Below are positions 60,986 through 64,000 of a DNA stretch of 64,000 nt, one piece after another. Positions within the stretch are counted from its first letter, which is position 1. Each line of letters starts with the position of its first letter. This DNA comes from an uncultured Pelagibacteraceae bacterium (GTDB lineage: Bacteria; Pseudomonadota; Alphaproteobacteria; Pelagibacterales; Pelagibacteraceae). The position numbers and the translations under genes are program-made. Location of the stretch: assembly GCA_902613065.1 (NCBI GenBank), contig CACMFU010000001.1:131471-195470 (forward strand), in the 5' to 3' direction. Under the pieces are notes generated by a model. That model made no database searches, had not been told where the DNA came from, and saw only the letters and a program-made list of their open reading frames with translations.

Positions 60986-61464
60986 TTTATTTTAAAATGT
61001 TTACTTAGCTCTAAAAGTGAATTTTTTATTTTGTCATTTTTAATATTATTTATGCTCTTTATATGTTTATTTTTTGTCGCATTAATAGCTGTATTTTTAT
61101 GGCTTTCTTCAATTTTTCCATCAAATGTATTCAATTTAATGTCATCTAAAACATGATAGCCAAAAAAAATATTAATTTTTTTTATTATTTCTTTTTTAGA
61201 ATACTCAACTTCAACTTCATTTCCCCTCTTTACTAAAATATTTAAACGACTACCCGATAACTTATTTGAACTTTTGTATGATTTAGGAAAGCTTACTTTA
61301 AATAAATCTTTACCTACTAAATATTTCCAATTGTCTAAAGTTTCGTTATAAATTTTACCTTTTTTACTAATTATTCTTTTTGCTTCTGTGGGTAAAGTAT
61401 CTTTAAAAGATCTTAAACCTTGAATGGAATTATATCTCTGCTTAGTATTATGTTTTTGACTCAT
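60982..61464 (-). CDS. DUF721/DciA-family protein
   Basis: NWKYLVG, EVEYSKKEIIKKINIFFGY; conserved dciA-dsbA-smc order divergent from mutY. Confidence 0.75.
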   Translation of the reverse strand: MSQKHNTKQRYNSIQGLRSFKDTLPTEAKRIISKKGKIYNETLDNWKYLVGKDLFKVSFPKSYKSSNKLSGSRLNILVKRGNEVEVEYSKKEIIKKINIFFGYHVLDDIKLNTFDGKIEESHKNTAINATKNKHIKSINNIKNDKIKNSLLELSKHFKIK

Positions 61465-62457
61465 ATGAATAATAAAAACATACCAAATAAAATTCTACAT
61501 TGGTACGATAATAATAAAAGAATTTTACCTTGGAGAAAAAAAGTTTCTCAGAAACAAAAAGAATATTTTACGTTTGTTAGTGAATTTATGTTGCAGCAAA
61601 CTCAAGTAAAAACTGTTATTCCTTATTTTGAAAAATTTGTAAAACAAATTCCAACCTTTCAATCATTAGCAGATGTTGATGAAAAAATCTTAATGAAACA
61701 TTGGGAAGGCCTTGGTTATTATTCAAGAGCAAGAAATCTAAAAAAAAGTGCAATTAAAATTCTTAAAGATTTCAACGGTAAGTTGCCAAAATCTTATGAA
61801 AAGTTAATACAATTACCAGGTGTTGGTGAATATACATCTAAAGCAATAATGTCTATAGCATTTAACATTAAAACTATCCCTTTAGATGGAAATGTAGAGA
61901 GAATTCTTAAAAGAACTCTCTATTTAAAAAAGCAGAATGAAATATCTAAAATTTCTCTAAAAACAAAAATTAATTTTTTTGGACTGTCCGATCGTGCTAG
62001 TGATTACTCACAAGCAATTATGGAAATAGGTGCTTTAATTTGCAAACCAAAAAATCCAATTTGTAAAGAATGTCCATTAAGTAAAAATTGTATATCTTTA
62101 AAAAAAAATGATTTTGAGTTAACTAAAATTAATAAAGAAATAAAAACTAAATATTTTGAAGCGACTATCTACAAAAAACAAAATAATTATTTATTGGTTA
62201 AAAATGATAAATTTAAATTTTTAAAAAATATGCCAATTTTTCCAATGACTGAAGTTCGAGAAAGTAAGTATAATTATTCAAATAATAAAAAAATTAATAT
62301 AAAATTATCTAATATGGAAATGAAAATTTTGATAAATAACTCGAAAAGACCACCAAAGATTAAAAATAAAATATTAATTAAAAAAGATAAATTAAGCTCA
62401 GAAATAATTCCATCATTTACTAAAAAAATATTTTATACCATCTCAAAATCTGAATGA
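61465..62457 (+). CDS. mutY: A/G-specific adenine glycosylase (start placed at ATG 61465)
   Basis: LPWR, VSEFMLQQTQV, WEGLGYYSRARNL, LPGVGEYT, LDGNVER, C-x6-C-x2-C-x5-C [4Fe-4S] motif. Confidence 0.95.
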   Translation: MNNKNIPNKILHWYDNNKRILPWRKKVSQKQKEYFTFVSEFMLQQTQVKTVIPYFEKFVKQIPTFQSLADVDEKILMKHWEGLGYYSRARNLKKSAIKILKDFNGKLPKSYEKLIQLPGVGEYTSKAIMSIAFNIKTIPLDGNVERILKRTLYLKKQNEISKISLKTKINFFGLSDRASDYSQAIMEIGALICKPKNPICKECPLSKNCISLKKNDFELTKINKEIKTKYFEATIYKKQNNYLLVKNDKFKFLKNMPIFPMTEVRESKYNYSNNKKINIKLSNMEMKILINNSKRPPKIKNKILIKKDKLSSEIIPSFTKKIFYTISKSE

Positions 62458-63575
62458 AAAAAGTTGCAATTGTAGGAGCTGGTATATCTGGTTTGTATCT
62501 TGCAAATGAATTAAACAAAAATACTGAAATAGATTATAAAATCTTTGAAAAAAGAGATTACCTTAATTTAAACGAAGGTTATGGCATTCAACTTTCAGTT
62601 AATAGTATTAATTTGTTAAATAAAGTAGGATTTAAAAATATTTCAGCATCAGATGTTTATTATCCAACAAAAGTTAATTTTTTCCAGGCTAAAAATATTA
62701 AAAAGATTTGTGAAATTGATTTAAAGCAATTCAATAGTGTAAACGACCGTTACACAACACTTAAAAGATCAACATTAATAAAGTTTTTAATTGGCAATAT
62801 ACCTGAGGAAAAAATTCAATTTAAAGCCGATATTCAAAATATCGAATATAATAAAAAAATAAAGATTTCTTGGAATAATAAGAATGAAAGTTTCGATTAT
62901 ATAGTAATTGCAGACGGTGTTTTTTCAAAATTAAAATCTCAAATATCAAATAATCATTTAAACCCAATTTTTAATGGGAACATTGCTTTAAGGGCGAATT
63001 TAAAACAACATGAAAAAGATAATATTTCTGTTTATATGGGTTCAAATTTTCACTATGTAACTTATCCTGTAAATCAAAAACTCGAATATAATTTCGTTGC
63101 TATAATCAAAAAGAAACTAACTACTAAAGAAATTGAAGATAAAAATACTCTTAATTCTGAAACATTTATAAAATCTTTAAAAGATCTTATTTCAAAAAAT
63201 TCTATTATAAATTTGGAGAGTTTAGTAAATTTAAAGTGTTTTCCTGTATTTGTGAGCACTGAATTACCCACACTAAAATATCAAAATACCTTTTTGAGTG
63301 GAGACGCTTTATTTGCTTTTCCACCTTCTTTTGCACAAGGTGCTTCTCAAAGTATTGAAACGGCAAATGGTATTTTAGAAAATATTACAAATTCAAATAA
63401 TGTTTATAAAGATAAAATAAGTAAAATATTACTAGTAAACAAAAGATCTAAACTAAATCATTTTGCCTTCCATTTAACTAATCCAATAATAATATTAATT
63501 AGAAATATTGTTTTGAAATTTTTATCAAAAAATAAAAAATTTTTAGAGAGTTATCTTGGAAAAATTTATAGATAA
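62454..63575 (+). CDS. FAD-dependent monooxygenase (aromatic hydroxylase-like)
   Basis: IVGAGISG, GYGIQLS, VIADGVFS, SGDA...PSFAQGASQSIE. Confidence 0.85.
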   Translation: MKKVAIVGAGISGLYLANELNKNTEIDYKIFEKRDYLNLNEGYGIQLSVNSINLLNKVGFKNISASDVYYPTKVNFFQAKNIKKICEIDLKQFNSVNDRYTTLKRSTLIKFLIGNIPEEKIQFKADIQNIEYNKKIKISWNNKNESFDYIVIADGVFSKLKSQISNNHLNPIFNGNIALRANLKQHEKDNISVYMGSNFHYVTYPVNQKLEYNFVAIIKKKLTTKEIEDKNTLNSETFIKSLKDLISKNSIINLESLVNLKCFPVFVSTELPTLKYQNTFLSGDALFAFPPSFAQGASQSIETANGILENITNSNNVYKDKISKILLVNKRSKLNHFAFHLTNPIIILIRNIVLKFLSKNKKFLESYLGKIYR

Positions 63576-63586
63576 CTTAATTAACT

Positions 63587-63615
63587 TTGTTCTTAATTTG
63601 TTCTTATGGTATCTT
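63587..63615 (+). promoter_or_regulatory. Putative sigma70 promoter overlapped by an alphaproteobacterial LexA (SOS) box
   Basis: GTTC-TTAATTT-GTTC at 63589-63603 (GTTC-N7-GTTC); TTGTTC-N17-TATCTT promoter-like spacing. Confidence 0.75.
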
Positions 63616-63629
63616 ATAACCGATTCGTT

Positions 63630-64000
63630 ATGAAAAAATATAAAACAATTTATGCTGATCCACCTTGGAGATTTAAAAACTTCAGTGAAAAGGGCGAGGG
63701 TAGAAATGCAATATCTCATTATGATTGCTTAACTTTACTAGATTTGAAAAAACTCAACATAAAACGCTACGCTGATAAAGATTGTGCTTTGTTTATGTGG
63801 GTAACAGATCCAATGCTTGATCAAGGTATCCAGCTTATGCAAGATTGGGGATTTAAGTTTAAGACTGTTGCTTTTTATTGGGCAAAGACAAATACTAAAG
63901 TTGATTTAAAAAAATTATCGTCTGAAAAAGATTTTTTTACTGGTCTAGGTTATTGGACTAGAGCCAATTGTGAACAGTGTATTTTAGGTACAATAGGAAA
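63630..64000 (+). CDS. MT-A70-family N6-adenine methyltransferase, N-terminal part (runs off the window; absent from the ORF track)
   Basis: MKKYKTIYADPPWRF...DCALFMWVTDP...WGFKFKTVAFYWAK...GLGYWTRANCEQCILG; DPPW motif and MT-A70 downstream blocks; no stop in 123 codons. Confidence 0.9.
   Translation, partial: MKKYKTIYADPPWRFKNFSEKGEGRNAISHYDCLTLLDLKKLNIKRYADKDCALFMWVTDPMLDQGIQLMQDWGFKFKTVAFYWAKTNTKVDLKKLSSEKDFFTGLGYWTRANCEQCILGTIG

Follow-up and report, generated by a model that had tools for sequence, protein, structure and literature searches.

Does the direct repeat GTTC-N7-GTTC in front of a DNA methyltransferase gene of a SAR11 bacterium place that gene under the control of the host LexA repressor, or is it part of an ordinary promoter that happens to resemble an SOS box? 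The window, that is, the whole stretch of 64,000 nt that was analysed, corresponds to G000:C1:131471-195470 of a SAR11-like genome of 1.27 Mb with 29% GC in 37 contigs, whose relatives in public records are single-cell genomes of Pelagibacteraceae (SAR11). In this window a gene for a FAD-dependent monooxygenase (62454-63575, plus strand, 373 aa, with a Pfam FAD_binding_3 match) ends with the stop codon TAA at 63573-63575, which marks the left edge of an inserted cassette. An intergenic gap of 54 nt (63576-63629; cttaattaacTTTGTTCttaatTTGTTCttatggtatcttataaccgattcgtt) separates this stop from the start of a gene encoding an MT-A70 family type II DNA methyltransferase of 211 aa. The 5' part of the methyltransferase gene occupies 63630-64000 on the plus strand, and its 3' end lies at G000:C1:195735, 265 nt beyond the window. 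Its reading frame begins with the ATG at 63630 (MKKYKTIYADPPW...); the ATG at 63606 given in the list of open reading frames was rejected as the start because in two orthologues (L086 and L087) its frame differs from that of the gene.

The gap holds a putative LexA operator at 63589-63603 on the plus strand, composed of GTTC (63589-63592), TTAATTT (63593-63599) and a second GTTC (63600-63603), and reading AAGAACAAATTAAGAACAA in reverse complement. The direct repeat sits within an 11-bp tandem repeat (TTTGTTCTTAA / TTTGTTCTTAT, 63586-63607) and overlaps a conserved TTGTTC-N17-TGnTAnnnT. The components of the latter are a putative -35 hexamer TTGTTC (63587-63592, plus strand) and a putative extended -10 element TGgTATCTT (TGnTAnnnT; 63607-63615, plus strand), whose TATCTT (63610-63615) follows the hexamer after a spacer of 17 nt. 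The initial annotation had placed both the box and TTGTTC-N17-TATCTT in this gap, and the sequence confirms the coordinates of each. A generic promoter scan did not list the methyltransferase promoter. Reading 63570-63610 by eye for a CtrA box (TTAA-N7-TTAA) gave no pair with the correct spacing. Further downstream, near the transcription start, which is predicted at about 63621-63624, and 3 nt before the start codon, lies GATTC (63622-63626, no strand assigned), a match to the CcrM target motif GANTC. GATTC or GAATC is found 3-4 nt before the methylase ATG in nearly all orthologues (L085-L087, L117-L139), and GANTC is also kept in this place in a group of 71-75% identity from unrelated contexts. 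It could couple expression of the methylase to CcrM methylation, or be the target of the modification system itself.

The initial annotation had named GTTC-N7-GTTC as the LexA operator of Alphaproteobacteria, which agrees with the motif established for this class (PMC3323433, PMC9578287). In cultured SAR11, transcriptomes show lexA, recA and umuDC to be induced together (PMC12753301, PMC2864753). The present genome does contain the lexA gene that such control would need: LexA is encoded at C2:75081-75764 (LexA_DNA_bind, 55 bits, in an ORF of 228-235 aa with an S24 peptidase part), and RecA at C32:1564-2688. No umuD homologue was found in this assembly; it may be truly absent, or may fall in an assembly gap. 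At least 30 relatives have umuD about 3 kb from recA, and the recA of this genome lies on a contig of 3.9 kb.

The operators of this order can be read from about 30 Pelagibacterales relatives, whose lexA, umuD and recA promoters keep GAAC-N7-G(A/T)AC. The lexA promoter carries GAAC-N7-GAAC in 29 of 29 relatives from four genera, with LexA identity as low as 55%; its letters are aGAACttttataGAACat in this genus and GAGAACATTGATAGAACAT in other genera, and the box of this genome, GAACTTTTATAGAAC, belongs to the same conserved direct repeat. Within the genus, lexA promoters (L003-L021, e.g. L001:1464-1500) extend to GAAC-N7-GAAC-N7-GTAC-N7-GTTC with a period of 11 bp, the last tetramer abutting the ATG, an arrangement that suggests two or three overlapping LexA sites. 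The recA promoters of 30 relatives (L033-L062) keep GAGAACAAAATGTGTACA, in its long form TTGCyAATGAGAACAAAATGTGTACAT. This GAAC-N7-GTAC variant is order-wide, is located between -35 and -10, and reads GAACAAAATGTGTAC in the present genome (G000:C32:2737-2755). In the other family, the recA promoter has an extra canonical box, GAACattaattGAAC, about 65 nt upstream of GAAC-N7-GTAC. Just before the start codon of umuD, 18 relatives have AAGAACAAAA(C/T)AAGAACA or (T/A/G)AGAACAAAA(C/T)AAGAACA. Read in reverse complement, the candidate site (AAGAACAAATTAAGAACA) differs from the umuD operator of the relatives, given as GAACAAAAYAAGAAC, only at two spacer positions and at the base after the second GAACA. 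The umuD promoters of the genus (L101-L116) also bear a conserved tandem pair of GANTC motifs, ttttGATTCacttttGATTCa, about 60-80 nt upstream of the LexA box.

How much weight does the match itself carry? The initial annotation had stressed that the box is perfect, and as evidence in itself this counts for nothing. The bare pattern occurs once in the window, for an expectation of 0.90, and at least one match appeared in 59 of 100 shuffles. Genome-wide, 10 matches were counted on both strands against roughly 19 estimated from base composition. Eight of these lie inside coding regions, and the only two intergenic ones are the lexA promoter and the candidate site. Intergenic DNA amounts to 51 kb (4% of the genome, 25% GC), in which about 0.5 bare matches are expected from length and composition. 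With expectations of about 0.9 for a window and about 0.5 for intergenic DNA, the 8-base match on its own is unremarkable and not significant. The latter figure favours a reading in which no LexA binds at all: TTGTTC would be a -35 hexamer, and the second GTTC would stem from the 11-bp tandem duplication and have been kept by recent ancestry.

Against that reading, the site fits the umuD, lexA and recA operators well beyond the eight core bases. A log-odds matrix of 19 nt was built from 37 distinct lexA, recA and umuD sites, with the candidate left out, and both strands of the genome were scanned with it. The recA operator scored 23.0 bits, the candidate site 21.5 bits (rank 2 genome-wide), and the second element and first box of lexA 20.4 and 19.1 bits, respectively. 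These four outliers are all in promoters. The next best sites overall, all inside coding regions, reached 17.6 bits and below, and the next intergenic site 11.3 bits. By exact enumeration, chance alone should yield 0.006 intergenic hits and 0.15 hits genome-wide at 21.5 bits or more. A matrix made from umuD sites only, none of them from this genome, placed the candidate first genome-wide (22.6 bits versus 14.8 bits for the next), which again speaks against a promoter devoid of LexA binding. The candidate ranked second, after lexA, with a matrix of canonical sites from which the loci of this genome had been removed, and third, after recA and lexA, with a matrix of sites from the other family only. 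Its high rank is robust to the choice of matrix.

The fit beyond the core also bears on a second alternative, in which another regulator that uses direct repeats with an 11-bp period, for example an OmpR/PhoB-type response regulator, acts at the -35 as an activator. Pho-box-type sites consist of 7-bp repeats with an 11-bp period and overlap the -35, and the arrangement in the gap resembles them. Nevertheless, the extended motif also heads lexA, recA and umuD in the clade, the canonical SOS genes, and such a regulator is hard to credit as the protein that reads this site. The reach of LexA in the present genome appears narrow. The initial annotation had named uvrA and ssb next to recA and lexA as promoters that would define the operator; the candidate did come out among the top four sites of the genome with a matrix from lexA, recA and umuD, but uvrA and ssb proved to be without a box, and the matrix scan gave no LexA box before any other gene of this assembly. 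The regulon visible in this assembly seems to comprise recA, lexA and the methyltransferase gene only. The lexA box GAACTTTTATAGAAC recurs as an exact 15-mer within a coding region of 489 aa (G000:C8:20403-20417); this copy is probably due to chance, since the letters on either side of it disagree with the operator matrix (11.6 bits).

A further line of evidence comes from orthologues. None of 40 close relatives examined has the methyltransferase gene, and orthologues were sought by scanning species-representative genomes and metagenome contigs. Three SAR11 single-cell genomes carry it at the same locus with 88-97% amino-acid identity, and 17 marine metagenome contigs carry it with 85-100% identity. 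As the initial annotation would predict for a genuine operator, the box is conserved: 20 of the 21 marine orthologues (this genome counted) have GTTC-N7-GTTC 40-43 nt before the ATG, with 15 distinct upstream sequences and the box-anchored consensus TTTGTTCnTAnTtTGTTCnTaTGnTA. In one orthologue (L130, 85%) the box is lost and the -10 (TG.TA) kept. Column identity is 100% at TTTGTTC and TGTTC, versus 50-70% over the 20 nt upstream. Both tetramers are invariant; free variation is seen at the positions that follow each GTTC and at one position of the spacer. The -35 hexamer is likewise invariant and TG.TA is kept in all 15 distinct sequences; located 17 nt downstream of TTGTTC, the conserved TG-n-TA...T has the form expected of an extended -10 element and supports the promoter that had been proposed earlier.

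This pattern has to be read with care. Because the entire 30-nt promoter is conserved, beyond the two tetramers, promoter function alone could be the cause of part of the conservation of the box, as the reading without LexA would have it for the whole -35 to -10 stretch. That reading also draws on the methyltransferase, whose sequence is unusually alike in different lineages, which hints at a recent spread. Genomes that share only 37-57% identity in mutY and monooxygenase have methylases of 88-97% identity, and the gene may have spread recently by recombination together with its promoter. If so, the conservation is weaker as independent evidence, and the 15 upstream sequences are indeed not fully independent, though their flanks have clearly diverged. 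On the other hand, the second GTTC is located in the promoter spacer, where RNA polymerase requires no particular sequence, and both tetramers stayed invariant in 15 distinct sequences whose flank and spacer had diverged to 50-70% identity. Weighed with the matrix scores, this makes a promoter without LexA binding an unlikely explanation of the site.

Taken together, the presence of lexA, the related repeat in the lexA promoter, the matrix rank and the conservation among orthologues support the proposal of the initial annotation that a LexA operator overlaps the -35 and spacer, and GTTC-N7-GTTC at 63589-63603 is very probably a working one. Among viral contigs and phage records, only relatives of 33-52% identity were found, all without the box, and homologues of the cassette in other contexts (71-75% identity) have no LexA box either. 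Since the homologues in other contexts are without it, the putative operator is best regarded as an acquisition of the host lineage, particular to the marine SAR11 copies and not intrinsic to the cassette.

What, then, would LexA control? The product has a full-length Pfam MT-A70 match (3e-29), a DPPW motif and a match to PADLOC MTase_II (1e-57), and its nearest phage relatives are 44-49% identical. The initial annotation had allowed for an operon continuing beyond the window; there is none, as the methyltransferase gene is monocistronic and the two genes that follow it are encoded on the other strand. The first of these is a minus-strand gene of 255 aa that is convergent with the methyltransferase gene, overlaps its 3' end by 12 nt and lies 6 nt downstream of ccrM. 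Its protein had no match in Pfam, NCBIfam, PADLOC or PDB sequence searches. In 15 homologues, D130 and E145-I-K147 are invariant, a PD-(D/E)XK signature. Its AlphaFold model is confident (pLDDT 87), and a Foldseek search with this model gave weak matches (best E 0.02), mostly to PD-(D/E)XK nucleases (among them N.BspD6I, Can2/Card1 and MunI), and the protein is taken here as a putative PD-(D/E)XK nuclease. An assignment of the 255-aa family to TdeIII, from a precomputed match of one homologue, was set aside when it was not reproduced on re-search. Domain searches revealed no DNA-binding regulator domain in either cassette protein.

The convergent pair occupies the monooxygenase/ccrM locus in SAR11, and recurs at 71-75% identity in other neighbourhoods beside an integrase and other genes (L132 and L136). 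In 20 relatives there is no methyltransferase gene at this place, and the convergent ccrM is the immediate neighbour of the monooxygenase gene. The pair is probably a strain-variable type II restriction-modification (R-M) cassette inserted between monooxygenase and ccrM. Because it recurs in quite different neighbourhoods it is read as a mobile cassette, and its accessory nature is shown by computation. A target-site duplication was considered and rejected, as both repeat copies stand side by side at one end, and none was seen at the right junction. Several observations describe the history of the locus. Within the cassette (L085-L087 compared with G000:C1:195100-196491), the methylase is 88-97% identical and the putative nuclease only 46-48%; two nuclease types (255 aa; 245-251 aa) are paired with a nearly identical methylase. 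The ccrM gene (G000:C1:196498-197571, 1 kb past the window end) is 90-91% identical to distant congeners and 76-77% to the three nearest relatives, to which the monooxygenase is 95% identical; judging by these identities, the discordance of ccrM indicates recombination at the locus.

A mechanism can be proposed on this basis. Bound as a dimer, LexA would sit on four bases of the -35 hexamer and on the greater part of the spacer, and would occlude the promoter and keep transcription of the methyltransferase low. DNA damage would then let RecA stimulate LexA to cleave itself, which would free the promoter and allow the methylase to be transcribed. For an active R-M system, repression of its protective methylase would seem hazardous unless a basal level is supplied by read-through from the upstream operon. 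The mutY gene (61420-62457) overlaps the start of the monooxygenase gene (62454-63575) by 4 nt; they probably share a transcript, from which read-through into the methylase gene could occur. This transcript is proposed as the source of basal methylase because no terminator-like structure was found between monooxygenase and methylase. The purpose of the circuit would be to hold the methylase low in normal growth and to raise it when repair synthesis creates unmethylated sites, so that newly synthesised, unmethylated repair tracts would be protected, a form of transcriptional restriction alleviation.

No terminator-like structure was found between the convergent genes either, and induced transcription could run antisense into the nuclease gene, possibly damping the nuclease. 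This opens a third alternative, in which LexA binds as proposed and the effect that matters is the damage-induced antisense transcription that lowers the nuclease, the level of methylase mattering little. The convergence of the genes, their 12-nt overlap and the missing terminator speak for it; yet it is a purely structural inference, and it is compatible with control of the methylase by LexA instead of excluding it. As the main consequence of LexA binding it is very unlikely. The fullest version of the LexA reading, in which an R-M cassette spreading among SAR11 has the host SOS repressor as its only regulator, with damage both raising methylation and lowering the nuclease, is offered as a tentative and somewhat doubtful extension.

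From the arrangement of these elements, self-protective methylation looks to be tied to DNA damage in this SAR11 bacterium. SAR11 are among the most abundant organisms of the ocean and have very few regulators, and their LexA regulon is apparently reduced to recA, lexA and umuDC. The predicted wiring of an accessory R-M methylase to this minimal circuit would link phage defence and self-protection to DNA damage. If this is true, LexA keeps the methylase low so that incoming DNA is restricted efficiently, and damage leaves repair tracts uncut, which would amount to transcriptional restriction alleviation for type II systems. Coupling the output of an R-M methylase to the SOS signal may even be a general principle. 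Because phage infection itself induces SOS in SAR11 (PMC12753301), the circuit also bears on the interplay of damage by sunlight (UV) and phage infection. Should it prove to be no more than an additional gene with a LexA box, it extends a known regulon in a routine way.

The proposed circuit shares features with several known systems. Like the alphaproteobacterial LexA operators of Rhodobacter, Sinorhizobium and Caulobacter crescentus, the site is a direct repeat with an 11-bp period (PMC3323433, PMC9578287). It also overlaps a putative promoter, and lexA and recA of the same genome have related boxes. In contrast to alphaproteobacterial SOS regulons, the predicted target here belongs to none of the classes repair, mutagenesis and cell division: it is the methyltransferase of an accessory R-M system. 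The regulon seemingly holds only recA, lexA (and umuDC in relatives) and this methyltransferase, and the recA box has the form GAAC-N7-GTAC. LexA-controlled mobile elements, such as integron integrases, colicin genes and the repressor circuits of prophages and ICEs, resemble the cassette in that a moving element carries an operator, putative in the present case, for the LexA of its host; the gene under control differs, being here the modification enzyme of an R-M pair. The nearest precedent would be ydiOP, the BsuM methylase operon of Bacillus subtilis, which is listed among the members of the LexA regulon. C proteins and self-repressing methyltransferases of the M.SsoII and M.EcoRII type similarly hold the methylase level through an operator that overlaps the promoter. 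Unlike those systems, the cassette has no C gene and its 211-aa methylase has no DNA-binding extension, and its repressor would be the LexA of the host, acting in trans and responding to damage. Finally, the proposed avoidance of self-restriction at unmethylated sites of repair and recombination is akin to the ClpXP-dependent alleviation of type I restriction by EcoKI (PMC11109961, PMC4231737). There, alleviation proceeds through proteolysis of the restriction subunit; the circuit proposed here belongs to a type II system and would work by inducing transcription of the methylase gene.
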